Assembly: GCA_964482715.1 (NCBI GenBank) | Contig: CAYZYX010000008.1 | Span: 1-51,228 of the forward strand | DNA length: 51,228 bases | From: an uncultured Clostridia bacterium | GTDB lineage: Bacteria > Aerophobota > Aerophobia > Aerophobales > B3-G15 | Direction of reading: 5' to 3' | Shown here: positions 24,869 to 37,244 of the stretch, piece after piece | Layout: every line of letters begins with the position of its first letter | Numbering within the stretch: position 1 is the stretch's first letter | Program-made: the position numbers and the translations under genes | The notes under the pieces: model-generated | Told to the model about the DNA's origin: nothing | The model's input: only the letters and a program-made list of their open reading frames with translations | Database searches by the model: none

Positions 24869-26107
24869 TTATTCGCTTTTCTTTGCTTTTTCGTATTCCT
24901 TGATAGCTTCTTCATACATATTTTTCTTCATATAAATATCACCCAGAAGAGAGTGTGCGCGGGTGTTGTCAGGATTAGCTTTTAAAAGCTTCTTTAGGGC
25001 TGACTCTGCCTCATCTAACCTCCCTTCTTTAACATAAAGATTTGCCAAGTTAAACAAAGCATCCAAGTTAGCAGGATTAACATCTATTTCTTTTTTGTAA
25101 AAGTAAATAGCCTTTTCTATATCACCCTTCTCATAATAGAGATTGCCCAGCCGATAATAGACATCTTCAAATTTTTGCTCCCTTTCCAGAATAAGCTGAT
25201 ATTGACTTATAGCCTCGTCTATTCTTTTTAACTGGGCATATGCAAAGCCAAGATAATAGTGACCAGCAGGAGCTTCTGGATTAATCCGGACAGCTTTTTC
25301 TAAAAAGGAACAGGCCGAAATGTAGTCCTTTTGCTTCAGGTAAAGATAGCCAAGTTCTACCAAGACCTGGAAGTTTTGAGGATCAATCTCCAGAGCCTCA
25401 AAGAACATTTTTTCTGCTTGCTGAAATTTTTCCTTTTTTTCGTATATCTTGCCAAGATAAAGGTAAGAGACGCAGTCCCGGGGATTTTTCTCAACTGCCT
25501 TTTTTAAATATATAACGGCTTTTTCCATCTCACCTAAATGATAGCAAATTTGACCCAATTCAGAGTCTATCCCTGTAAAATCTGGATCAATCTGTTTAAC
25601 CTTTTCCAGTAAAGTGCGGGCCTTGGCCAGATCCTTCTTAATTTCAAATATCTTGGCCATGTTATAAAGGGAGGGAGCATGGGAGGGATTCTGGTTTAAC
25701 TCCTTTTGGTATTCTTCTAAAGCTTGCTGGTAAAGCTCCTGATAAAAATAGAGATTACCCAGTTGAAAATAAATTCCTGGATAGGTAGGGTTTATCTCTA
25801 TGCATTTTTTTATCTCCTTGGTAGCTGAAGAAAAGTCCTGCAAGGCAAAGTAAACAAGTGAAAGATTGTAATGTGCTTCAAAACTTTCTGGATTTAACTG
25901 AATTGCCTCTTTAAACTCCTTCTCGGCTTTTTCATACTGGCCTCGATGGTAGTAAGCTACACCCAGATTAAGATGAAGTGTGAATTTTTCTTGCGAAAAA
26001 GCGGGCAATGAGAAAAAAACAAGGATGATTGATGTTAAAATTAAAATCACCAATCTTGCATTTAAACAAGGGAAACTCTCAAATTTAGAATTTCTCTTCA
26101 AGTTCAT
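24869..26107 (-). CDS. exported tetratricopeptide repeat protein
   Basis: Hydrophobic N-terminal segment followed by about ten 34-aa TPR units (LG..Y..A...F..A...NP). Confidence 0.9.
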   Translation of the reverse strand: MNLKRNSKFESFPCLNARLVILILTSIILVFFSLPAFSQEKFTLHLNLGVAYYHRGQYEKAEKEFKEAIQLNPESFEAHYNLSLVYFALQDFSSATKEIKKCIEINPTYPGIYFQLGNLYFYQELYQQALEEYQKELNQNPSHAPSLYNMAKIFEIKKDLAKARTLLEKVKQIDPDFTGIDSELGQICYHLGEMEKAVIYLKKAVEKNPRDCVSYLYLGKIYEKKEKFQQAEKMFFEALEIDPQNFQVLVELGYLYLKQKDYISACSFLEKAVRINPEAPAGHYYLGFAYAQLKRIDEAISQYQLILEREQKFEDVYYRLGNLYYEKGDIEKAIYFYKKEIDVNPANLDALFNLANLYVKEGRLDEAESALKKLLKANPDNTRAHSLLGDIYMKKNMYEEAIKEYEKAKKSE

Positions 26108-27632
26108 ATACGACCTCCACTATAAAAGTAATTTTGTTTTTTCTGGTTTCTTTTGGAATAGGAGGAAAGGGAGAAAGCTCTAAAATTAAACTTTTTGCTG
26201 CTTTGTTTAACCTGGAATACGAACATGGAGTTACGATTTTTAAGTCTTCAACTTCTCCACTTTCACGGATGGTGAAGCTTACCTTCACTTTTCCCTCTTC
26301 TCCTTTTCTTCTTGACTCAAGTGGATACCTTTTGTTTTTTTGTATAATTTGCATAATTTTTTTAAAATAGGTTTCCAGATACAAAGATTCGGGAACAATA
26401 GGAGACTTTTTTTCTTTCATCAGATTGGCTTTGGAAAAATCGGGAGAGAGAACAGGAGAGATAAGCACCTTTTCATCTCCTCTCTTTTCAAGATTTAAAT
26501 TCAAAGGGGAAGAGAGAAAGGGGGAAATCCTCCTATCCTCTTCCCCTGGAGAGAGTAGATGGGGGGAAAGAAGGCCTTCTCTCTCTGAAACACAGTTATC
26601 CCTAAATAAAATAAAAGGTAAAACAGATCGGGTTGCGGGTAAAAAGATTCTTTCCCTGTTCAGGGTTAGATTTGCTGGAGGGCGATTTTGGTTAACGTAA
26701 CTTTTTAGACCCGTAGATAAGCTTAAAATACCAGGAGATGTTGAGTGAAAAAGTATATTCTCTTTTTTGTTCTCATTCAGTCTTAATTTTGAAACTTCTC
26801 GTAAAAAGGGTAAATAATCAAATTTTTGCCCCTTACTTTCCAGTATCTTTATCTTTAATGGTCCCGGCTTACCTTCAATATTTTTCTTGAGAGTAATTTT
26901 TGATAGATTCCGAATTTTCCTTTCCGAGATTTCTAAAACCTGATAGCTGGGTTTGTCAAGTACTTTTTCCACTCTCTTTATCGAAACATCTAAATCCATT
27001 CTTCTTTTAAAAACAGGTGTAGACTCCTCCGGGGTGAGAAATAAAATTTTAAGAGTCAGCGGAGTTCTAAGAGATTCCTGAATCAAATATTTACGTTTTT
27101 CGGGCACCTTATATTTTTCTCCGCTTGCGATAAATCTGGAGAAAGAAGGAGGGGATTGAGAGATCTTCACTTTTTTCCTCTCAGACCCAAAAAGAGGCTG
27201 TGAAATAATAGCTATATGTTTTGAAGACATAAACCCGGAAGATACTTCAGAGTCGATTTTTCTGAGCCCAGCTTGTTGATCGGGAAAAGAGAAAAAACTC
27301 ACCTCTTTTAAAGAACTGGATGGCCTATAAATCCCGGGGCTACTCAAAGGCAAATTTTTGGATAAAGGGATGTTTCCTTTTTCTAAAGAAAGAAAAGATA
27401 AAGTGAAAGGGTCGTTCATAATCTTAATATCTGCTAAATTTCTTCCAGATAAATTTATATCAGGTCTTCCGACAAATTTTTTCGTTATACTCATATATAA
27501 AACCGGTTCAATCCGTTCTTTAAATGTATAGGTCAGCTTTATCTCTGGTTCGGTTCTATTGTGAGTAAATTGAAAAGGAATAAGAAAAATAAGTCCATGG
27601 ATAAACAAAGAAAAAACTATCCATTTTCCCAT
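26085..27632 (-). CDS. tonB: TonB-family energy transducer with very long linker
   Basis: N-terminal SLFIHG TM motif; C-terminal YPLESRRKGEEGKVKVSFTI..G.V..LNKAA..PFPPIP; follows exbBD. Confidence 0.8.
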   Translation of the reverse strand: MGKWIVFSLFIHGLIFLIPFQFTHNRTEPEIKLTYTFKERIEPVLYMSITKKFVGRPDINLSGRNLADIKIMNDPFTLSFLSLEKGNIPLSKNLPLSSPGIYRPSSSLKEVSFFSFPDQQAGLRKIDSEVSSGFMSSKHIAIISQPLFGSERKKVKISQSPPSFSRFIASGEKYKVPEKRKYLIQESLRTPLTLKILFLTPEESTPVFKRRMDLDVSIKRVEKVLDKPSYQVLEISERKIRNLSKITLKKNIEGKPGPLKIKILESKGQKFDYLPFLREVSKLRLNENKKENILFHSTSPGILSLSTGLKSYVNQNRPPANLTLNRERIFLPATRSVLPFILFRDNCVSEREGLLSPHLLSPGEEDRRISPFLSSPLNLNLEKRGDEKVLISPVLSPDFSKANLMKEKKSPIVPESLYLETYFKKIMQIIQKNKRYPLESRRKGEEGKVKVSFTIRESGEVEDLKIVTPCSYSRLNKAAKSLILELSPFPPIPKETRKNKITFIVEVVYELEEKF

Positions 27633-28033
27633 AGTGATTCTTCTCCTGAGCTTTTTGTAGCTATACTCACTCCTTCAGCTCCAGCTAATCGGCACACATC
27701 CATAACCTTAACAGGTATTTTAAAGGGAACCTCAGCATCTGCTCTAATAAGGACAGTTTTATCTTTTCTTTCTGTCAGTAAGGATCTTAAAAAGGGCAAA
27801 AGTGCTTCTATTTCTACCTTATTTTCCTCCACAAAAATCTGTCCATTGGATTTGATGTAAATGGCGAGACTCTCTGTTTTTCCGGTTGCTGTCTTTGCCT
27901 CAGGAAGATCCAGTTTCATGGACTGGGAACCGATGGATGTAAGAAGGAAAAATATAAGTAGTAAAAGGACAATGTCTATCAGAGGAGCAATCTCCAGAGT
28001 TAAGGGAATTTTCTTACGGGTAACCACTCTCAT
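27617..28033 (-). CDS. exbD: ExbD/TolR biopolymer transport protein
   Basis: IAPLIDIVLLLLIFFLL, LDLP, LIRADAEVP. Confidence 0.92.
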   Translation of the reverse strand: MRVVTRKKIPLTLEIAPLIDIVLLLLIFFLLTSIGSQSMKLDLPEAKTATGKTESLAIYIKSNGQIFVEENKVEIEALLPFLRSLLTERKDKTVLIRADAEVPFKIPVKVMDVCRLAGAEGVSIATKSSGEESLWENG

Positions 28034-28640
28034 TTCTCACTCCTTTTAACATGCTCTCTGTTTCAAAGGCTACCTCTCTTATTTCAGAGGAAAGATCATC
28101 AATTTTTCCTTCAATATAATGATAGATAACCAGGGAAGGTATAGCTACAGCAAGTCCTGCTGCTGTAGTGATGAGAGCTTCCCATATTCCTCCAGCCAGG
28201 GTTTTAGGATCAACCACTCCACCAAGATTTTCTACAGTCATAAAAGTTTTTATCATTCCCAGAACTGTGCCAAACAGTCCCAGAAGAGGGGAGATATGTC
28301 CAATTATTCCAAGTATTCTTACATTCTTACCCATTTTTCTAATTTCTCGTGAACAATACCAGGACAAAATTTCCTCTCTCACCGTAGAGGGGAGCTTACG
28401 GTTTTCAAGAACAAGAGCACACACTCCTGCCAGAGGACTGTGAGTCCTCCGGCAGAAGTCTATGGCCTGTTCAACACGTTCATTTTCAATCATATTCTTA
28501 ACTTCGGTCAGAAAATCAGAGATATTCAATTTTATTTGAGAAAAAGTGTACAGTCTTTCCAGAATTATCCCCAGGGCAACGATTGAACAGGCCAGAATAG
28601 GCCACATCACCAATCCACCCTTGAGAAAAAACTCTACCAC
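28014..28640 (-). CDS. exbB: ExbB/TolQ/MotA proton channel protein
   Basis: KGGLVMWPI, PLLGLFGTVLGMI, GIWEALITTAAGLAVAIP. Confidence 0.92.
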   Translation of the reverse strand: MVEFFLKGGLVMWPILACSIVALGIILERLYTFSQIKLNISDFLTEVKNMIENERVEQAIDFCRRTHSPLAGVCALVLENRKLPSTVREEILSWYCSREIRKMGKNVRILGIIGHISPLLGLFGTVLGMIKTFMTVENLGGVVDPKTLAGGIWEALITTAAGLAVAIPSLVIYHYIEGKIDDLSSEIREVAFETESMLKGVRNESGYP

Positions 28641-28671: not shown

Positions 28672-30588
28672 TTATAAGTTTATCTTTATCCCGGCTTTAA
28701 TGGTTCTGCCAGGCATTGGATAACCCTTTATATCCTCATACTCTTCATCAAGTAGATTATCAGCCTTGAAAAAGAATTCGATCTTTTTGCCTACTACATA
28801 TCTCAGTCTGGCACCAAGGAGGGTATAGGAGGGAAGTTTTTCTGTGTTCTCCCGATCGGCAAATCTTTCTCCCACCATCTGACTTTCAAGAAACAGGCGA
28901 AGTTTAGACGTTATCATCCAGTCCAGACCCAAAAAGAACTTATCTCGGGATCTGTAGGGTAAAAGTTTACCAGGATATTCCTTCTCGTCTTTAGCCTCAA
29001 GGTATGTATAATTAAAAGATAACTGAAGTTTTTTTAGAGGTTTAAATTTAACCTCTCCCTCCAGACCTTTGATGGACGCTTTGTCTACATTTTGGGCCTC
29101 CCATCTCCAGGGCTGTGTTTCTATCCAGCTTATGAGATCATTAACCCGGGATGAAAAACAGGTTACCCTTGTGAGAATCTTTGGGGTAAGAAATGTTTCC
29201 ATGCCTATCTCGTATTGTGAGGAAACTTCGGGTTCTAACTCAGGATTTCCGAAAAGTCCCATACCCCATCCCCAATCTTCCTGCCAGTAAAGATCATTCA
29301 CACTTGGGGAACGAAAAGCGGTACCCCAGGACATCTTGAAAGATGTTAATTTTCCAAAACGATGAATAATTGATATACGGGGGTTAACCCGACAGCCATA
29401 GACAGAATGTTGGTCATATCTTGCTCCCAGAAAAAGCAAAGTCCTGGGAGAAATTTCCACCTCATCCTGAAGAAATAAAGCACCGGAACTGACCTGCCTT
29501 TTTCCTCCGATTCTGGATGTCCCATCTGCAGTCCGCACATCAACCTGATCTTCATTCCAGTCAATTCCCCAGATAAAATTGTGTTTTGAAGTAGAAAAAT
29601 TGTGTTGAAAAACTGCACCCTGTCTTTCATTTCTCGTTGTGTCCTTTTGATTCCAGTCTGGATTCTGATATAGGGTCTCATCCTGGCTGCAAAAAAAGTT
29701 AAGAGAAAAATCAGATTTTCCTCTTGTCCAATTACATTTAAGGTTAAGCCAGTTTCTCTCATCCTTTTCTGTAGCTCGAGGAGAGGGAAAATCCTCTGAC
29801 CCCGGAATTCCCTTTTTCTCCTGAGAGTATCCTCCTGAAAAAGTAAAGGAGACAGAAGAAAGAGGGTAAATTACCTCGCCGCTTAAGTAAGAAGACTTTT
29901 TCCAGTTATTTTCTCTATCTCCGCCAAAATCAAACCCTCTGATGGTAAAAAAGTAACCGGTTTTTCCTGATTTTGAACCATGAGACAGAGTGTAAGAGTT
30001 CATGTCGTAGCTTCCAAAAGAGAGTTTAGCCTCTGTTTTGCTGGCATCGGGTGGATTCTTGGTTACTATATTTACCACTCCACCCAGTGCCCCTGACCCG
30101 TAAAGAGCAGAGAAAGGACCTCTTGCTATTTCAATCCTCTCAACATCATCCAGAGGATACCCACTGAGATCAACTGACCCGGTAGAGGCAAGATTAACCG
30201 GACGGCCATCGATCATTACCAGAACCTGATTTGCTGAACTTCCTCTCACACTTAGAGTAGACATTCCACTAAAGCCGTAGCTTCTTACCTCTACACCGGC
30301 AATTTTTTGCAGCAATTCACTCACATTGTTCGCTTCAGAATCTCTTATTTCTTCCTGACTAATTACGGTAACAGAACCGGGGGCATCTTTCAAAAGTACA
30401 GGGAACCTGGTAGCAGTAATTACTATCTTTCCCAGTTCAAATATTTCCGCATTTACAGGATAAAGATAAATCAGGAAGTATTCTGACAGAAGGAGACACA
30501 GTAAGGAAAATACAAATAACAGTTTTTTTCCTTGATTCTCAATTTTCTCTGACAATTTTCTTACTGGAGTTAAATTTCTGCTTTTCAT
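28672..30588 (-). CDS. btuB: TonB-dependent cobalamin receptor (BtuB-like)
   Basis: TonB box IVITATR, plug VLVMIDGRP, IEIARGPFSALYGSGALGGVVNIVT, C-terminal GYPMPGRT; lies in B12-riboswitch operon. Confidence 0.85.
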   Translation of the reverse strand: MKSRNLTPVRKLSEKIENQGKKLLFVFSLLCLLLSEYFLIYLYPVNAEIFELGKIVITATRFPVLLKDAPGSVTVISQEEIRDSEANNVSELLQKIAGVEVRSYGFSGMSTLSVRGSSANQVLVMIDGRPVNLASTGSVDLSGYPLDDVERIEIARGPFSALYGSGALGGVVNIVTKNPPDASKTEAKLSFGSYDMNSYTLSHGSKSGKTGYFFTIRGFDFGGDRENNWKKSSYLSGEVIYPLSSVSFTFSGGYSQEKKGIPGSEDFPSPRATEKDERNWLNLKCNWTRGKSDFSLNFFCSQDETLYQNPDWNQKDTTRNERQGAVFQHNFSTSKHNFIWGIDWNEDQVDVRTADGTSRIGGKRQVSSGALFLQDEVEISPRTLLFLGARYDQHSVYGCRVNPRISIIHRFGKLTSFKMSWGTAFRSPSVNDLYWQEDWGWGMGLFGNPELEPEVSSQYEIGMETFLTPKILTRVTCFSSRVNDLISWIETQPWRWEAQNVDKASIKGLEGEVKFKPLKKLQLSFNYTYLEAKDEKEYPGKLLPYRSRDKFFLGLDWMITSKLRLFLESQMVGERFADRENTEKLPSYTLLGARLRYVVGKKIEFFFKADNLLDEEYEDIKGYPMPGRTIKAGIKINL

Positions 30589-31870
30589 CTTTACCTCCTG
30601 GAGAGAGACATTTTTCTAAAAGAGAAATTATTTCTTCTTCCCTTTCCCCCACCATTACTCTCTCCCGGAGTAAATTTTCAAAAATTTTTTTAGCTTCCCC
30701 CCTGGTATAATCTCTCTTTTCTATAGGTGTGCCGTTATGAACAATAACTTCTGCTCCACACTCCTTAACCGCCCAGAGAGCAGCTTTTAGATTAAGAAGA
30801 TTCCCATTACCAAAAGGAACATTACATAAAATCACCACTTGAGAGTTAGAAATCAAATCCATATTTCTGGAGTGTGACTCAAGGGTAATAGGTGAAAAAG
30901 GGGCTTCAGCCACACAGGCAATTCCAAAAGCCTCAGCCATCTCAAAATCGGCGTCAAAAACATTCACCACTCCTATGCTTACCTCATAACCAAGTTCAAC
31001 CAGTTCTTTTATCAATCTACTTGCACTTCCTCCCCCTCCAATAAGATGAACCCTTCCTCTTTTTGCCTTTTTCCTTTCTTCGCAGATAGACCTTTCAGAG
31101 GTTGCGACCGGAAGAACATAAACAGATCCGGTTAAGGGATGCTTTTTTACCAGTGCATTCAAGTGATAGACACTTCTTATGTTTTTTTCCGTCAAAACTT
31201 CTTCCACAGCTCCTTTGGCAAAAACTTTACCTTCCTTTAAAAGGAGCAATTTATTACAGTAACGAGCGGCAAGGTTTAGATTGTGAGATACCAGAATCAC
31301 GGTTTTGTTTCCTTCTCTATTTAACCCGGATATAAGGGTCATTATCTCAAGTTCCTGGTTTAAATCAAGATGTGCCGTTGGTTCATCCAGAAGTAAAAGA
31401 GGAGTATCTTGAGCCAGAGTTCTTGCTATTACCACCCTTTGCAACTCGCCCCCGCTTAGTTCCGTAACCTTCCTTTTCCTGAGCTCCCAAGTTTGAGTTA
31501 ACCTCATACACTCTTCAACTTTCTCCAGATCTTCCTTTTTCTCTCGCTCAAACCTGCCCAGATAGGGATTTCTACCCATCAAAACGACTTCAAAAACAGT
31601 ATAGGGAAAACTAATAAAGGTATTCTGAGGGACCATAGCTACCTTTTGTGCCAGCTGATGACGACTCATCTCCTTAATGTTTTTTCCTTCAATCCATATG
31701 TTTCCATCTTTCACCTTCAGGATTCCGGTCAGCGTTCTAAGTAACGTGGTCTTCCCTGCTCCATTGGGACCCACTATACCCAGAAAGTCTCCGGATTGTA
31801 GGGAAAAAGTTACGTTTTCCAGAACTTTCTTCCCATTCAGTTCACAGTGAAGGTCAATTACTTTAAGCAA
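30539..31870 (-). CDS. btuD: cobalamin ABC transporter ATPase with C-terminal extension
   Basis: GPNGAGKTT, VLMGRNPY, LSGGELQR, LLDEPTAHLD, plus an extra domain RVHLIGGGGS. Confidence 0.82.
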   Translation of the reverse strand: MLKVIDLHCELNGKKVLENVTFSLQSGDFLGIVGPNGAGKTTLLRTLTGILKVKDGNIWIEGKNIKEMSRHQLAQKVAMVPQNTFISFPYTVFEVVLMGRNPYLGRFEREKKEDLEKVEECMRLTQTWELRKRKVTELSGGELQRVVIARTLAQDTPLLLLDEPTAHLDLNQELEIMTLISGLNREGNKTVILVSHNLNLAARYCNKLLLLKEGKVFAKGAVEEVLTEKNIRSVYHLNALVKKHPLTGSVYVLPVATSERSICEERKKAKRGRVHLIGGGGSASRLIKELVELGYEVSIGVVNVFDADFEMAEAFGIACVAEAPFSPITLESHSRNMDLISNSQVVILCNVPFGNGNLLNLKAALWAVKECGAEVIVHNGTPIEKRDYTRGEAKKIFENLLRERVMVGEREEEIISLLEKCLSPGGKDEKQKFNSSKKIVREN

Positions 31871-31872
31871 AG

Positions 31873-32886
31873 CTAACCCCTTTTAGCTTTGATTAAAAGA
31901 TAGATAAAGAAAGGTGCACCAAAACAAGAAGTTATCACCCCCACTGGAAGTTCGACAGGAGCAATTACCGTACGAGCCAGAGTATCACACCAGACCAGAA
32001 ATATACCCCCCGCAAAAGCAGTTACAGGTATGAGTAATCTGTGATCAGGCCCAACCAGCATCCTGGTAATATGAGGGACAATCAATCCCACAAATCCTAT
32101 TATACCACTAACCGAAACCACAGAGGCAGTAACCAGGGAGGCTAAAACAAGAAGAATCCTTTTTGTCTTTTCCACTTCCACTCCCAGATGAGAGGCAGAT
32201 TCTTCCCCCAGTTGTAAGATATTCAGATCTCGAGCAAAAAAGAAAGTAGCCGGCAAACCAAAACCGACAAAAGGAACTACCATTAAAAGATCCTTCCAAC
32301 CCCTGTTCCACAATCCTCCCATGATCCAGAATATGACACGATGTAAACTCTCTGCTGCTGTATACATTAAAAGAGAGGTAACAGCTGAAAAAAAGAAACC
32401 AACTGCTATTCCAGCAAGAAGCAGACTCTCCACAGCTACTTTACCTCTTTTCCAGGAAATCCTGTAAACCAGAAGAATAGTTCCTGCTCCAAAGACAAAG
32501 GCAAGTAAAGGAACAGAGAAAAACGCAGGAAAAATAAGCAAGGCTACCGTTGCTCCTAATGATGAGCCAGAGGAAACCCCTGTAATGTAGGGACTGGCCA
32601 TGGGGTTTCTGAAAAGTCCCTGCATAATACATCCCGCTGTTGCCAGTCCTGTCCCCACCAGCATAGCCAGAAGAATGCGGGGAAGTCTCAAATTAAAGAG
32701 GATGGTAAGATATCTTCCCGAAACTTTTTCTCCTGTTAGCCTTTGTAAAAAGGGGATTTGTCCGGCTATGGCCTTCCAGGTCACAGAAAAAGGAATGGCA
32801 ACTGAGCCAACGGATAAACTCATAACTATGGTTAAAAGAGTGACCATAAACAAAATTCCCGTGATCATTGCCGATTTTTGATGCAT
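31873..32886 (-). CDS. btuC: cobalamin ABC transporter permease (FecCD/BtuC)
   Basis: LRLPRI, QGLFRNPMASP, IGFVGLIVPH, ELPVGVIT..GAPFF. Confidence 0.87.
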   Translation of the reverse strand: MHQKSAMITGILFMVTLLTIVMSLSVGSVAIPFSVTWKAIAGQIPFLQRLTGEKVSGRYLTILFNLRLPRILLAMLVGTGLATAGCIMQGLFRNPMASPYITGVSSGSSLGATVALLIFPAFFSVPLLAFVFGAGTILLVYRISWKRGKVAVESLLLAGIAVGFFFSAVTSLLMYTAAESLHRVIFWIMGGLWNRGWKDLLMVVPFVGFGLPATFFFARDLNILQLGEESASHLGVEVEKTKRILLVLASLVTASVVSVSGIIGFVGLIVPHITRMLVGPDHRLLIPVTAFAGGIFLVWCDTLARTVIAPVELPVGVITSCFGAPFFIYLLIKAKRG

Positions 32887-32977: not shown

Positions 32978-33916
32978 TTAAAGATTTCTTGTCCAGCCAC
33001 ATACCCTGCAATGAAAACTGTCTTTTTTCAATCCTGCTCCACAACCGGGACACGACTTCTCCCCTTTGTCTGGCGAGGGTATAGAGCCTACTTTATCCAG
33101 ATAGATTTTGTAATAGTAAAAATGCTCCTTATTTATAAATTTCACCCGATGAATGTCTTTTGCCTTTTCAAACTCTGAATCTTTAACCCGGGAAGTTATA
33201 ATCTCTCTCAATCTGGTAGTGCCTGAGCCGTATTCCAGTGGTCTTTTTTTCTGCCAGACGATCTCATCAGGTAGTATACCCTCAAATGCCTTTCTCAGTA
33301 TCCATTTACCGGTATATTTTCCCTGATCCTTTTTTAATTTCAGCGAAACAGGAATTTGAAGGGAAAAATTCACAAAGTCCTTATCCATAAAAGGTTGTTT
33401 TATTTCAATATTAAGGGATCTGGCTAACTTATTAGAACTAAAATACATGGATTTATTCAGTCTCTCAATGTAACTCTCAAGAAAAGGTATATTCTGCATG
33501 TAGGTGTATCCGACAAACAGTTCGTCACTTCCATCGCCGGTCATAACAGTCTTTATCCCTATTTTTTTTGCCATCTTTAATCCAAAATAAACAGTAATGT
33601 CGTTTGGAATTGCCGGATCAAAACTTTCAAGAATCTGGATAACCTCGGGAATAGCTTCAATTGCTTCCTCAGTATCTATTGTAACTTGATAATGTTTGAG
33701 ATTGAGGTATTTAGATAATATCTCTGCGTACTTTAAATCTTCTCCCCAAGAATGAACACTTACAGTAATAGCCTTTATCTCTGGACAAAGACAGGCCAGA
33801 ATACCTGAATCTAATCCTCCGGAAAAAAGAAGTCCCTCCGCTCGATTTCTCTCCACCGATTCTTTTAATCTTTCTCTTAGCCTGTTGATTGTTTCCTTTA
33901 GTGTTTGATTGGCCAT
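32978..33916 (-). CDS. asparagine-synthase C-terminal-domain protein (PP-loop, no glutaminase domain) with C-terminal zinc ribbon
   Basis: FSGGLDSG, TGDGSDELFVGY, QPFMD, GKWILRKAF, KKRPLEYGSG, CPGCG..CRVCG; only 312 aa. Confidence 0.85.
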   Translation of the reverse strand: MANQTLKETINRLRERLKESVERNRAEGLLFSGGLDSGILACLCPEIKAITVSVHSWGEDLKYAEILSKYLNLKHYQVTIDTEEAIEAIPEVIQILESFDPAIPNDITVYFGLKMAKKIGIKTVMTGDGSDELFVGYTYMQNIPFLESYIERLNKSMYFSSNKLARSLNIEIKQPFMDKDFVNFSLQIPVSLKLKKDQGKYTGKWILRKAFEGILPDEIVWQKKRPLEYGSGTTRLREIITSRVKDSEFEKAKDIHRVKFINKEHFYYYKIYLDKVGSIPSPDKGEKSCPGCGAGLKKDSFHCRVCGWTRNL

Positions 33917-33934
33917 AACTTTAACCTCTTACTG

Positions 33935-34840
33935 CTAATAATCAAAAGAAGTTATTTTCACTATCGGACCTCTCTCCCAGAGAGCCGTAAGGTAAAACCT
34001 AACATTATAGCCCCATAACTTTTTTATCTCATCCTGTAGTCTGGCAACCCGAGAAAAATCAGGAGGAAGAAGAATTCCTATCACCCTTCCTTCATGGGCT
34101 ACATTCACTCCTAAAGCTCCCATTCTTCTGGACAGGGAAACAATTTTAAAAAGATCGGGCTTGTAAGAGATTATCTGATTACAAAGAGCAGAAAGAGTTG
34201 CTCCGGTCCCAATGAGTTCAGGATTTTGTTGTCTTATACCTTCTTTAACTAAAATATAAGCCTCTTCTACAAGCTCTGTGTTGACCTGATATAAGATCTT
34301 AGCGGTTTTGTTCTGATTGAAGGAAAAATTACCCGGGCATTCTTCAGGATCCACAATTAAAATTTTAATAGGAGGAGGAAAGCCCAATTTTTCGATTAAA
34401 ATACCTCGTACATGGTCAAAACATACAATACCTTTATACATTATTCCTTCAGTAAATTCAATTGTGGAAGCTATTTGAGCAATTTGGTCGTGCGTTATTG
34501 GTTTTTTCAAAAGAGCCGCTACGGCTAAGCAGCTTGCTGTAATGTCAGCTGTACTGCTGGCCATTCCTTTTGAATCAGGTATCTCTGATTTAAAATCAAG
34601 GTTTATAGCCCTTTTCTTTTCACCGTTATTTAGCAAGTTGAAAGTCTTGTTTGCTGCTTCCTGTGCCCTTGGCTTTGGAGGGAAGCAATTTATCTTCTGG
34701 TTTAAATAGTTTAAGCTGGAAAAAGATGCTGTGACTTTAGAAAAAAGTCTAACCGGGCAGGTAATATGAAAATTGATTCCCTTTATCTGCCCCTGGACCA
34801 GTTCTCCGCAGGCCCCTGGCGTTTCTACAGTTACTTTCAT
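33935..34840 (-). CDS. pduX: GHMP kinase, PduX-like L-threonine kinase
   Basis: PGACGELVQG, IPDSKGMASSTADI, GATLSA, GVNVAH; B12 context. Confidence 0.8.
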   Translation of the reverse strand: MKVTVETPGACGELVQGQIKGINFHITCPVRLFSKVTASFSSLNYLNQKINCFPPKPRAQEAANKTFNLLNNGEKKRAINLDFKSEIPDSKGMASSTADITASCLAVAALLKKPITHDQIAQIASTIEFTEGIMYKGIVCFDHVRGILIEKLGFPPPIKILIVDPEECPGNFSFNQNKTAKILYQVNTELVEEAYILVKEGIRQQNPELIGTGATLSALCNQIISYKPDLFKIVSLSRRMGALGVNVAHEGRVIGILLPPDFSRVARLQDEIKKLWGYNVRFYLTALWERGPIVKITSFDY

Positions 34841-35901
34841 CTGGTCTTTTCCCTGGATACTCCTGCATTCTCAAAGGTGGCCATCTCTCGTAGAATTTTC
34901 GCACTTGCCTCTATAATGGAAATGGCAAGGGCTGCCCCTGTTCCCTCGCCAAGCCTCATGTTTAAATCCAGCAGAGGAGAAAGATCTAAATAATCCAGAG
35001 CTAAAATATGTCCCTTTTCAGCGGAAAGATGAGAAGCAAAAACATACTCTACCACATGAGGACAAAGCTGTCTGGCTATTAAAGCACCGGCAGTGGAGAT
35101 AAATCCATCTATTACTGCAGGCACTTTGGAAGCAGCAGCTGCCAGAATACACCCGGCAATTCCCCCTATCTCATATCCTCCTATTTTAGCCAGAACATCA
35201 ACAGGGTCTTCAGGATCGGGATGGTGAAAGTTTAGGGCTTCCCGAATTATCTTTACCTTTTTTTGCCAGATCTTACCATTTACACCCGTTCCTCTGCCCG
35301 TAACTTCTTGAGGATCTCTTCCAGTTATAGCTGCCAGAATAGCACTGCTTGGTGTCGTATTGGCAATACCCATATCTCCCATCCCAACTATATCAATTGG
35401 AACTTTTTTGTATTCTTCTTCAAAAACTTCCATACCAGCCTCTATGGATTGGATAGCTTGCTCTCTACTCATGGCCTCTTCTTTTAAAAAATTCCTGGTC
35501 CCCTTCCCTATTTTCTTGATTTTAATACCAGAAGAAGGGTCAATATCTCTTATGACACCCATATCCACTACAATTACCTCAGCTCCCACATGTTTTGCCA
35601 GAACATTAATTCCTGCACCTCCCCTTAAGAAATTACAAACCATCTGATAGGTGACCTCCTGTGGATAGGTAGATACTCCTTCTTTGGCAATTCCATGATC
35701 ACCAGCAAATACAAAAATAACCTTTCTCTTCAAACAGGGATTCAGTTTTCCTTTGATAGCCGCTATTCTTTTTGCCACCTCTTCCATTTTTCCCAGGCTT
35801 CCTCTGGGTTTGGTCAAATTGTCAAGTCTTTCCTGGGCTTTAATGAATACTTCTCCTGGCAAAGGCGAAATTTTATCTATCACATCTTTTATTCTGGTCA
35901 T
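34837..35901 (-). CDS. cobT: nicotinate-nucleotide:dimethylbenzimidazole phosphoribosyltransferase
   Basis: LTKPRGSLG, FAGDHG, GDMGIANTT, GRGTG, IDGFI, MRLGEGTGA, MATF. Confidence 0.96.
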   Translation of the reverse strand: MTRIKDVIDKISPLPGEVFIKAQERLDNLTKPRGSLGKMEEVAKRIAAIKGKLNPCLKRKVIFVFAGDHGIAKEGVSTYPQEVTYQMVCNFLRGGAGINVLAKHVGAEVIVVDMGVIRDIDPSSGIKIKKIGKGTRNFLKEEAMSREQAIQSIEAGMEVFEEEYKKVPIDIVGMGDMGIANTTPSSAILAAITGRDPQEVTGRGTGVNGKIWQKKVKIIREALNFHHPDPEDPVDVLAKIGGYEIGGIAGCILAAAASKVPAVIDGFISTAGALIARQLCPHVVEYVFASHLSAEKGHILALDYLDLSPLLDLNMRLGEGTGAALAISIIEASAKILREMATFENAGVSREKTR

Positions 35902-36823
35902 TTTTAGTTCCCTCCTTCCAAAAATCTGTGATATATTCGTCTATTCTTTCCAATCCTTCAACTATCCTTGGCCCGGGAAGTTCAAGAAGATCCTGTTCTA
36001 TCACGTATATTTGACCTTCCTTGATAACTTGCATTTTTTTGAATTCAGGATCGCCTTTCATCTTTTCTAGGAGAAGCTCTCCAGTTGTTCCCATCTGGGA
36101 GCATACAATTATATCAGGATCTCTCATTAGAACAGTTTCCTTGCTTATAACCTTCCACCCTTGAAGGTCAAAAGCCACATTCCTTCCTCCAGCAATTTTA
36201 ACTAACTCATCAAAAAAAGTGCCAGTTCCTGCTGTCCATAGCTCAGGATACCACATAATCCACAGGATCCATGGCCTTTTTTCTTGAGGTATTTTCCTAC
36301 TTTTCTCCTCGACCACTTTTATTCTCTTCCTTAAATTTAACACCAGCCCCTCTGCCTTATCCTCAAAACCAGTAGCCTGCCCCACCATAACTATATCCTT
36401 CAGAACATCTTCTAAAGACCTTGGATAAAGAGACACTACAGCAATTCCCAGCTCGCGCAATTTTTCAATATTTTCCTCTCCATTACCGTAAGCGGCAAAG
36501 ACAAGATCAGGATTCTTTGCTACGATGGTTTCAATATCAGGGGTAGTATATCCTCCAATCTTGTCTATTTCTTTTGCCTCTGGAGGAAAATCACAGTAGG
36601 TAGTGACTCCCACCAGTTTACTGCCTGCTCCTATGGCAAAAAGAATCTCGGTATTTGCCGGGGCCAGAGACACAATTCTCTCCGGTTTCTTACTGATTAT
36701 CACCTTTTGACCAAAATCATCTATAATCTGGCGAGGAAAACCAGCATCCCCCTCTGCGGTAAATAAAAACAGTAAAAATACCCCCAGTAGAAACAGTAAA
36801 ATGTGTCCTGCTTTTTTAATCAT
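35873..36823 (-). CDS. btuF: cobalamin-binding periplasmic protein
   Basis: RIVSLAPANTEILFAIG, VGVTTYCDFP, PGPRIVEG. Start ATG at 36823 after GAGGAGGTG; the ORF-track extension runs through the terminator. Confidence 0.88.
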   Translation of the reverse strand: MIKKAGHILLFLLGVFLLFLFTAEGDAGFPRQIIDDFGQKVIISKKPERIVSLAPANTEILFAIGAGSKLVGVTTYCDFPPEAKEIDKIGGYTTPDIETIVAKNPDLVFAAYGNGEENIEKLRELGIAVVSLYPRSLEDVLKDIVMVGQATGFEDKAEGLVLNLRKRIKVVEEKSRKIPQEKRPWILWIMWYPELWTAGTGTFFDELVKIAGGRNVAFDLQGWKVISKETVLMRDPDIIVCSQMGTTGELLLEKMKGDPEFKKMQVIKEGQIYVIEQDLLELPGPRIVEGLERIDEYITDFWKEGTKNDQNKRCDR

Positions 36824-36843
36824 TTTCACCTCCTCAACCTGAT

Positions 36844-36887
36844 AAAAAAAACCCTGACCTCCTCCTTTTGGGAAGGTCAGGGTTTTT
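36844..36887 (-). terminator. riboswitch expression-platform terminator
   Basis: Minus strand AAAAACCCTGACCT..AGGTCAGGGTTTTTTTT immediately before the btuF RBS. Confidence 0.85.
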
Positions 36888-36940
36888 ATTTCCAAACAAA
36901 AACCCGCACCTTCTCATCTCGCGAAGAAGGAGGGGGTACT

Positions 36941-37160
36941 TTTCCTGCGGGCAGGTATTCTGGCTTCCGGCAAACCTCCAAAATGGAGGTCTTCCTACTT
37001 TCCACCCCTTCCCGCAATAGTCAGCTTTCACCGACTACTGCAGTGGTTTTTTGTTCGCCTGATTTAAGCGAACAGGTGGATTTCGTTCCGGTCACAGCGG
37101 CGCGACCGCGAGGGACTTTCACCCTCTTCCCTTTTAACCCTTAAAGGGTCCCGCAAGAAA
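36941..37160 (-). ncRNA. cobalamin (AdoCbl) riboswitch
   Basis: Minus strand P1 TTCTTGCGGG..CCCGCAGGAA; TTAAAAGGGAAGAGGGTGAAAGTCCCTCGCGGTCGCGCCGCTGTGA; CCACTG..GGGAAGG; B12 box AGCCAGAATACCTGC. Upstream of btuF-cobT. Confidence 0.95.
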
Positions 37161-37216
37161 GCACCTTCACCTAAAAAGATCACCTGTGAAAGATGTGGCA
37201 GTCCAAACTAACTTAA

Positions 37217-37244
37217 AAAATATATCAATTAAAAAATTTGTCAA
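37217..37244 (-). promoter_or_regulatory. promoter of B12 operon
   Basis: TTGACA-16-TATTTT about 55 nt before the riboswitch. Confidence 0.6.

Follow-up and report, generated by a model that had tools for sequence, protein, structure and literature searches.

The window analyzed here is a stretch of 51,228 nucleotides (positions 1 to 51,228 of contig CAYZYX010000008.1, hereafter C8, from the genome assembly GCA_964482715.1 of an uncultured Clostridia bacterium), the minus strand of which carries a cluster of vitamin B12 salvage genes that includes a gene for a 312-amino-acid protein with an Asn_synthase C-domain (32978-33916), denoted AsnX below. A preliminary description of this DNA, made from the sequence alone, considered AsnX a candidate cobamide enzyme and gave the gene order as riboswitch, btuF, cobT, pduX, AsnB-like C-domain, btuC, btuD, btuB, exbBD and tonB, which is borne out by open reading frame (ORF) calling and by searches against Rfam, Pfam and NCBIfam. 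In the direction of transcription, the features are:

37217-37244, minus strand: sigma-70-like promoter match TTGACA-16-TATTTT (consensus scan, 10 of 12 positions), just 5' of the riboswitch
36933-37169, minus strand: cobalamin riboswitch aptamer (Rfam RF00174, 88.1 bits against a gathering threshold of 31.5, E 1.7e-20, full model 1-189)
35873-36895, minus strand: BtuF-like periplasmic corrinoid-binding protein, 340 amino acids (PF01497, Peripla_BP_2, E 1.8e-36; BtuF model NF002894, 113 bits, below cut-off)
34837-35901, minus strand: CobT, nicotinate-nucleotide:base phosphoribosyltransferase, 354 amino acids (PF02277, E 3e-137; TIGR03160, 453 bits, cut-off 319)
33935-34840, minus strand: PduX-family GHMP kinase, 301 amino acids, probable L-threonine kinase (GHMP_kinases_N, E 1.8e-10; tblastn)
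32978-33916, minus strand: AsnX, 312 amino acids, AsnB-type PP-loop synthetase domain and C-terminal zinc ribbon (PF00733, E 7e-46)
31873-32886, minus strand: BtuC-type ABC permease, 337 amino acids (PF01032, FecCD, E 7e-103; NF007081, 323 bits, below cut-off)
30539-31870, minus strand: BtuD-type ABC ATPase, 443 amino acids (PF00005, E 5e-35; NF007082, 345 bits over residues 1-357, below cut-off)
28672-30588, minus strand: BtuB-like TonB-dependent outer-membrane receptor, 638 amino acids (Plug and beta-barrel domains; TIGR01779, TonB-B12, 274 bits, below cut-off)
28014-28640, minus strand: ExbB (PF01618, E 1e-29)
27617-28033, minus strand: ExbD (PF02472, E 3e-27)
26085-27632, minus strand: TonB-like protein, 515 amino acids (TonB_C, E 1.4e-15, at residues 433-511)

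Rfam detects one riboswitch in the window, so that the whole cluster would be under a single element, unlike in several relatives. Adjacent genes are separated by gaps, or joined by overlaps, of at most 91 nucleotides, and AsnX starts 18 nucleotides past the stop codon of the kinase gene. No terminator-like site was found in the 91-nucleotide gap between AsnX and btuC by a scan whose counts are not above those in shuffled sequences; promoter-like sites in the region likewise do not outnumber those in shuffles, so the promoter match can be read as compatible with an operon promoter. The kinase matches no NCBIfam model at cut-off. In a tblastn search, its Salmonella match is the gene annotated 'pduX: L-threonine kinase PduX' (E 9e-24), to which it is 28.5% identical along 97% of the query; it also matches a Klebsiella gene annotated as pduX/L-threonine kinase and a Listeria gene adjoining cobD.

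Genes for cobD, cbiB, cobU, cobS and cobC were said to be missing from the window, and tblastn with locus-derived queries indeed finds none there. The reported lack of CbiP and CbiZ holds beyond the window: in the whole host genome (1.565 Mb, 94.7% complete), no CbiB, CbiZ, CbiC, CbiA-type or CbiP protein scores over cut-off. DUF71, a family that becomes important below, was not found in this genome either (best PF01902 match 18.7 bits, under cut-off; no tblastn match). The best aminotransferase candidate for a host CobD, on contig C16, reaches 207 bits where the cut-off is 290.55; it sits between ilvD and cmk and is left unassigned here. Outside the operon, and invisible from the window, tblastn locates cobU-cobS on contig C10 and btuR on C9.

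The AsnX protein

The sequence details given for AsnX in the preliminary description (the 18-nucleotide gap, SGGLDS, TGDGSDE, the missing glutaminase domain and CxxC..CxxC) all proved correct in the translation and the profile alignments. The motifs are FSGGLDSG (residues 31-38), TGDGSDE (126-132) and CPGC...HCRVCG (289-306). The NCBIfam AsnB models align with AsnX solely over their residues 206-502, the N-terminal glutaminase domain being missing, and a PDB profile search matches AsnX to residues 209-503 of E. coli AsnB (1ct9; E 1e-36). The AlphaFold (AF2) model built from a 64-sequence alignment has a pLDDT of 92.9, and its top Foldseek match is again 1ct9 (E 1e-16, TMq 0.76, 29% identity); E. 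coli AsnB and human ASNS come first (TMq 0.74-0.78; human ASNS 0.76-0.78), followed by beta-lactam and carbapenam synthetases. In Pfam and NCBIfam, AsnX hits PP-loop families only and displays no homology to CbiP, which consists of a CbiA-type ATPase and a GATase_3 domain. No longer AsnX forms (547-2000 amino acids) were found at E <= 1e-40, which is weak evidence.

The residues that are invariant across 64 AsnX homologs are S32, G33, G34 and D36 of the PP-loop, D131 and E132 of the acidic loop, K204, K224, and C289, C292, H302, C303 and C306 in the zinc ribbon. Three AsnB elements taken to be active-site residues have different fates in AsnX: the Lys of WRQKEQF is retained as the invariant K224, SGEGSDE becomes TGDGSDE, with E aligned to D128, and the position of the Arg in TTIRAST is occupied by an invariant Pro (P104). 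Thus, the ATP-handling core is kept and part of the presumed substrate side differs. The characterized synthetases of the AsnB fold adenylate a carboxylate and then form an amide. AsnX is an uncharacterized and, as described in the next section, widespread variant of the AsnB synthetase domain.

Among characterized proteins, AsnB is the best-scoring relative of AsnX, and the host genome contains no other Asn_synthase-type gene; both observations would fit an ordinary ammonia-dependent asparagine synthetase, or some housekeeping PP-loop enzyme, that merely happens to be located in the operon. This explanation, however, is contradicted by AsnB equivalog scores far under the cut-offs (170.6 vs 499 bits for NF006949 and 136.7 vs 267.1 for TIGR01536), by the replacement of the TTIRAST Arg, by the B12 genes that surround AsnX in all 55 loci across phyla (see below), and by the gene content of the host. 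In the host genome (G000), no asparaginyl-tRNA synthetase (AsnRS) scores over cut-off and neither AsnA nor a full-length AsnB is present, whereas GatB is (579 bits; the sites recorded for this gene set are C21:5659-7089, C6 and C11); accordingly, Asn-tRNA is probably produced by tRNA-dependent transamidation only, and an asparagine synthetase would not be needed. We consider it extremely improbable that AsnX is a plain asparagine synthetase.

The AsnX family and its DUF71-B12 partner

The protein database contains 976 relatives of AsnX at E <= 0.001; the best 120 of the 976, with the window protein excluded, are mostly 297-353 amino acids long, show 52-84% identity and are all named from uncultured lineages. 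A scan by peptide pattern with one genome per species, a procedure that favors close relatives (at least 48% identity), yielded 55 loci (loci, genomes and contigs are denoted by L, G and C numbers), the record titles of which name Omnitrophota, Elusimicrobiota, Desulfobacterota/Syntrophales, Planctomycetia, Planctomycetota, Nitrospirota, Actinomycetota, Dehalococcoidia and others. The neighbors were identified by calling ORFs, clustering them and annotating one representative per cluster, so the counts depend on that ORF calling (in L017, AsnX is hidden under an overlapping ORF and was located by its coordinates), and they are lower bounds, many loci being interrupted by contig edges. Genes for B12 transport or nucleotide-loop assembly are present in all 55 loci, across many phyla: BtuD and BtuB in 33 each, BtuF in 30, CobT and BtuC in 28 each, BtuR in 24, CobU in 22, CobS in 18, CbiB in 17, where it often directly adjoins AsnX, CobD in 16 and CobC in 10. 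A cobalamin riboswitch on the same strand 5' of AsnX was detected by Rfam in 13 of the 20 loci scanned. Given these neighborhoods and riboswitches, and the lack of a need for AsnB in the host, the earlier proposal that AsnX is related to cobamides and is not a plain asparagine synthetase is strongly supported; the opposite outcome of the neighborhood profiling against cob/cbi genes and riboswitches, that is, homologs without a cobalamin association, did not occur among these loci. In several loci, a second cobalamin riboswitch is located inside the cluster, before btuB or btuC (L002:6279-6505, L045:12230-12427 and L036:3587-3758), so that these clusters appear to be regulated as two units.

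The most frequent neighbor is a protein of the DUF71 family (PF01902), encoded in 43 of the 55 loci and directly 3' of AsnX in 40 of them. DUF71 scores over cut-off in 47 of 51 AsnX-containing genomes, and one protein of 526 amino acids (P0074), the sole fusion seen, is a natural AsnX-DUF71 fusion. The family DUF71/COG2102 has been divided into Dph6, the diphthine-ammonia ligase, and 'DUF71-B12', a subgroup predicted to act in B12 salvage (de Crecy-Lagard et al. 2012, PMC3541065). Proteins of this subgroup carry the motif ENGE(F/Y)H, their genes are found in clusters with btuFCD and cbiB, and their distribution is anticorrelated with that of bacterial CbiZ. In 30 aligned DUF71 sequences encoded beside AsnX, the motif GE.GEYH, which corresponds to the published DUF71-B12 signature, is invariant. 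A CbiZ-like role for DUF71-B12 was cautiously put forward by the authors of that article, one of whose reviewers asked why a PP-loop ligase should hydrolyze; Dph6, the closest characterized DUF71 relative, is a carboxylate-ammonia ligase. The available part of the text has no mention of an AsnB-like partner in B12 clusters; what it does describe, for a few archaea, is DUF71 fused to full-length AsnB, which would supply Dph6 with ammonia (PMC3541065).

A search of the full-text literature, subscription journals being outside its coverage, found neither an experimental follow-up of DUF71-B12 nor a report of an AsnB-like protein tied to cobamide metabolism; the 'Asparagine synthase' mentioned in PMC2667541, considered as a prior report, refers to another predicted B12-dependent protein. 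AsnX is tied to the DUF71-B12 problem, to which it gives a concrete, testable answer. Stand-alone DUF71 genes with the ENGEYH motif are also found outside B12 clusters, at L076:2898-3560 (G348) and L078:6352-7077 (G352); one of these adjoins a nitroreductase-family gene and the other a gene for a NUDIX NADH-pyrophosphatase-like protein.

AsnX is encoded in 5 of the 7 other genomes of the host's taxonomic family, which illuminate the layout of the window. In G347 (L081, G347:C86), the genes btuF-cobT-pduX-cobD-cbiB-AsnX form a row, the kinase being 59% identical to that of the window and followed by cobD-cbiB; G349 (L080, G349:C11) has AsnX-DUF71-btuC-btuD; and G353 (L082, G353:C59, the same contig as L002) has a bare btuF-cobT-AsnX-btuC-btuD. 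In G348 and G352, the DUF71-B12-type genes are those located elsewhere in the genome. The operon of this family is therefore modular, with the core btuF-cobT-AsnX-btuC-btuD, an optional pduX-cobD-cbiB before AsnX and an optional DUF71 after it, and AsnX is a constant companion of the transporter and CobT. The window looks like the G347 arrangement minus cobD-cbiB and the G349 arrangement minus DUF71, these genes being either lost or located in the unassembled 5% of the genome. Because AsnX is retained in the host without CbiB or DUF71, it cannot depend on either.

As a second possibility, the preliminary description suggested that AsnX is a non-orthologous replacement of CbiB. In this case, a soluble AsnX would activate cobyric acid by adenylation of its f-propionate and attach the aminopropanol phosphate or threonine phosphate made via PduX, a sequence of carboxylate adenylation and amine attack that would suit the AsnX fold. 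The proximity of pduX and AsnX, only 18 nucleotides apart, and the lack of CbiB and CobD over cut-off in the host genome are in its favor. The comparison of genomes speaks against this suggestion. CbiB scores over cut-off in 29 of 50 AsnX-containing genomes and in 2 of the 5 from the host's family, is found in 17 of the 55 loci and accompanies AsnX in de novo biosynthesis clusters. In the G347 row, pduX belongs with cobD-cbiB, AsnX being an extra function, and the minimal operon of L001 and L002 contains AsnX without pduX. Replacement of CbiB by AsnX thus appears very unlikely; the pduX-AsnX adjacency in the window looks like a remnant left after the loss of cobD-cbiB, and the window pduX itself may be an orphan. 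Directly 5' of AsnX in L005 (G005:C64:10559-11094), the CbiB frame is split in two by a TAA stop; either cbiB may be decaying here while AsnX stays intact, or the assembly may be wrong at this site.

A further possibility is that AsnX has a different role in B12 metabolism, for instance, amidating or activating a precursor of the lower ligand or of the linker, or carrying out an ATP-dependent, uptake-coupled handling step. The constant neighbors in the host family are btuF, cobT, btuC and btuD only, AsnX is kept where DUF71, CbiB and CobD are absent, and the conserved zinc ribbon is outside any assigned role. However, adjacency to CobT is common to the whole CobU-CobT-CobS block in other phyla, no step in lower-ligand activation is known to need a carboxylate-amide ligase, and the producers that lack CbiP, considered in the next section, would be left unexplained. 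Such a role is, in our estimate, unlikely.

AsnX in relation to CbiP and CbiZ

In a few genomes, AsnX-DUF71 stands among the genes of de novo cobamide biosynthesis. In G016, a single plus-strand operon encodes CbiK, BtuC, BtuD, a BtuF-like protein, CbiC, a CbiL-type methylase, a 357-amino-acid ORF, CbiD, CbiET, a CbiF-CbiG fusion, a CbiH-type methylase and, at its end, AsnX and DUF71. In G017, AsnX-DUF71 is located within a cluster of CbiK, several corrin methylases, CbiG, CbiC, CobD and BtuFC. In the salvage clusters of L014, L030 and L042, the order is (BtuB/BtuR)-AsnX-DUF71-CbiB-CobD-CobU-CobT-CobS, and in L015, L029 and L047, it is CbiB-CobD-AsnX-DUF71-BtuFCD. Among 12 CbiC-negative, CbiP-containing genomes of the order to which G017 belongs, CbiP directly adjoins CobU-CobS-CobD-CbiB, on one side or the other, in 5 and is located beside CbiB in a sixth. 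Given this shared position beside the CobU-CobS-CobD-CbiB block, AsnX-DUF71 stands at the place of CbiP in the salvage module. The 357-amino-acid ORF of G016, located between the CbiL-type methylase and CbiD (L059:6217-7290), belongs to no Pfam family (weak 'Gate' match, E 9e-5), and G023 has an ORF of the same length at the equal position of its cbi operon (L058:5364-6437).

The phyletic profiles were derived from two sets, namely the 50 AsnX-containing genomes reached via the loci (L048 and L052-L055 were left out), to which the host genome is added where the total is 51, and a 301-genome sample of the order containing G017. In the first set, CbiP (TIGR00313) scores over cut-off in 1 of 51 genomes, with one additional partial match; CbiC and CbiZ are present in 4 of 51 each; and a CbiA-type protein (TIGR00379) is over cut-off in 22 of 55. 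In the order sample, AsnX is encoded in 9 genomes, CbiP in 212, CbiC in 150 and DUF71 in 23; CbiP is found in 1 of the 9 genomes with AsnX (8 of which have DUF71) as opposed to 211 of the 292 without it. Of the anticorrelations with cbiB or cbiP proposed as a check in the preliminary description, that with cbiP is seen, whereas that with cbiB is not.

Of the 150 CbiC-containing genomes in the order sample, 9 lack CbiP, and one of these is the AsnX-containing G017. When both sets are pooled, five genomes contain AsnX and CbiC (G007, G016, G017, G023 and G153), and each has a CbiA-type match. In G007, G017 and G153, this match spans the full length and passes the cut-off, whereas in G016 and G023, it is truncated by a contig end and stays below the cut-off. 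CbiP is missing in 4 of these 5 compared to 8 of 148 CbiC-containing genomes without AsnX (Fisher p 1e-4, an indicative value, kinship and completeness being uncontrolled). The 8 genomes that have CbiC but neither AsnX nor CbiP were checked for the possibility that DUF71 alone replaces CbiP; only DUF71 fragments were detected, in G275, so that these genomes are best read as incomplete assemblies.

Taken together, these observations suggest, with a probability that we put at about 0.5, that AsnX uses ATP and ammonia to amidate carboxylates on the side chains of corrinoids and is thus an analog of CbiP; the substrate, the use of ammonia, the choice of the carboxylates to be amidated and the co-transcription of the operon are what we infer from the genomic evidence. 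The idea in the preliminary description that AsnX re-amidates corrin side chains with ammonia fits in this broader, CbiP-like form, considering the rarity of CbiP in AsnX-containing genomes, its absence in 4 of 5 producers and the shared position in the module; for the narrower repair of deamidated cobinamide or cobamide, no enzyme is known. Amidation of the CbiP type would explain the ligase folds of both proteins, the AsnX-DUF71 fusion, the places of the pair in salvage and in de novo operons, the absence of CbiP from producers and the fact that CbiB and CbiZ are found alongside AsnX.

The mechanism could be as follows. When B12 is scarce, the riboswitch would permit expression of the operon, and BtuB, TonB and ExbBD together with BtuFCD would import the available corrinoids. 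AsnX, with ATP bound at its PP-loop, would adenylate a free side-chain carboxylate on a corrinoid that had been amidated only in part or had lost amide groups, and free ammonia would displace AMP to yield the carboxamide, after which BtuR, CobU, CobT and CobS, encoded in this operon and elsewhere in the genome, would complete the cofactor. Across the family, AsnX would normally work beside the second PP-loop enzyme, DUF71-B12. In salvagers, and also in a few organisms that make cobamides de novo, the two would jointly amidate the b, d, e and g carboxylates, as CbiP does elsewhere; in the host, AsnX alone would act on cobinamide- or cobamide-level molecules. A more far-reaching and more tentative version of this proposal is that AsnX and DUF71-B12 might constitute an unrecognized, non-homologous, glutaminase-free cobyric acid synthase, in which two adenylating PP-loop enzymes share the amidations. 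This synthase would be used by producers without CbiP and by a wide range of uncultured anaerobic auxotrophs, which belong, to judge by record titles, to Omnitrophota, Elusimicrobiota, Desulfobacterota, Dehalococcoidia, Planctomycetota and Nitrospirota, in the latter to finish or repair under-amidated environmental corrinoids, and AsnX alone would re-amidate cobinamide or cobamide in streamlined genomes.

Several points weigh against the CbiP-like function. The host has no DUF71, CbiB, CobD (over cut-off), CbiA or CbiP, so that a product at the level of cobyric acid would have no onward route; AsnX must therefore act on cobinamide- or cobamide-level molecules unless the missing genes reside in the unassembled 5% of the genome. 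The relationship between AsnX and CbiP is not strictly exclusive, since the producer G153 has CbiP in addition to AsnX-DUF71. Nearly all the compared genomes are metagenome-assembled genomes of unknown completeness, which makes the absence of CbiP soft evidence. The overall anticorrelation of AsnX and CbiP is confounded by lifestyle because most AsnX-containing genomes belong to plain salvagers that would lack CbiP anyway, so that only the few CbiC-containing genomes and the positional displacement are specific. Finally, co-transcription with the riboswitch is predicted only from how closely the genes are spaced and from the fact that no terminator-like site was found.

An alternative that extends the 2012 hypothesis to the new partner is that AsnX and DUF71-B12 form a CbiZ-like route, which dismantles or remodels imported cobinamide, or cobamides with the wrong lower ligand, to feed CbiB. 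The clusters often contain CbiB and CobD and no source of cobyric acid, and the scarcity of CbiZ in AsnX-containing genomes (4 of 51) matches the published DUF71-B12/CbiZ anticorrelation (PMC3541065). Three of the four CbiZ genes, however, are inside the AsnX operon. In L024 (1677-3716, 679 amino acids) and L034 (5214-7277, 687 amino acids), BtuF-CbiZ fusions, with a BtuF-like domain at about 58-281 and a CbiZ amidohydrolase domain at about 355-549, are encoded directly 5' of AsnX-DUF71, and in L015, a CbiZ ORF directly follows DUF71. Where found, CbiZ is thus a neighbor of AsnX and not an alternative to it, which suggests complementary rather than redundant functions. Furthermore, PP-loop enzymes of both families are ligases, the objection already raised by the reviewer (PMC3541065). 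A CbiZ-like route would also leave unexplained why the AsnX-DUF71 pair closes a de novo cbi operon and why AsnX is found where CbiB is missing, as in the host. We find a CbiZ-like route quite unlikely.

Known systems and significance

AsnX shares with AsnB/ASNS (EC 6.3.5.4) the synthetase fold, the PP-loop SGGLDS, the acidic G-x-G-S-D-E loop and the Lys of WRQKEQF. AsnB, however, contains an N-terminal Ntn (class II, Cys1) glutaminase domain and is about 550 amino acids long, whereas AsnX, at about 310 amino acids, lacks this domain, adds a C-terminal Cys-x2-Cys...Cys-x2-Cys zinc ribbon and is encoded in the context of B12 salvage as opposed to amino-acid synthesis. The beta-lactam and carbapenam synthetases have the same fold (Foldseek TMq 0.61-0.67; PDB profile E 1e-15 to 1e-16) and demonstrate that the AsnB domain can be recruited to other carboxylate substrates; unlike AsnX, they keep a degenerate N-terminal domain, and they form intramolecular amides. 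DUF71-B12 resembles AsnX in its btuFCD/cbiB niche and in the rarity of CbiZ, and is its usual downstream neighbor and sometimes fused to it, but the two belong to separate PP-loop families (PF01902 and PF00733, respectively), and the host has AsnX only.

CbiP/CobQ (EC 6.3.5.10) resembles AsnX in the proposed role, in the position by cobU-cobS-cobD-cbiB and in the near mutual exclusion of the two in genomes. Nevertheless, its CbiA-type ATPase and GATase domains have no sequence relationship to AsnX, which is an analog at most. CbiP takes its nitrogen from glutamine and proceeds via a phosphorylated intermediate, whereas the reaction proposed for AsnX would consume free ammonia and proceed via an adenylated one. 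CbiB, the adenosylcobinamide-phosphate synthase, converts a corrin carboxylate to an amide, as AsnX is proposed to do, and is often encoded beside AsnX, but is an integral membrane protein of the unrelated family PF03186 and co-occurs with AsnX instead of being replaced.

Cobamide exchange shapes anaerobic communities, and the pathway is predicted from genomes by means of a set list of cob/cbi markers. If the proposed function is correct, genomes that are scored as incomplete producers for want of CbiP may be complete, and salvagers may draw on a wider pool of corrinoids, including partly amidated or hydrolyzed ones. The question of what DUF71-B12 does, posed in 2012, could then be tested directly, because both its partner and its substrates would be specified. 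AsnX would represent another case in which the AsnB synthetase domain has been recruited to a new task, as well as a non-orthologous displacement in one of the best-studied cofactor pathways.

A feature of the window that is separate from AsnX concerns BtuD (30539-31870), the ABC domain of which ends near residue 250 and is followed by an extension of about 185 amino acids. The model NF007082, 'corrinoid ABC transporter ATPase', which aligns to its residues 1-357, is of the haloarchaeal type, and similarly long BtuD ORFs are present in the relatives L002, L009, L026 and L080.

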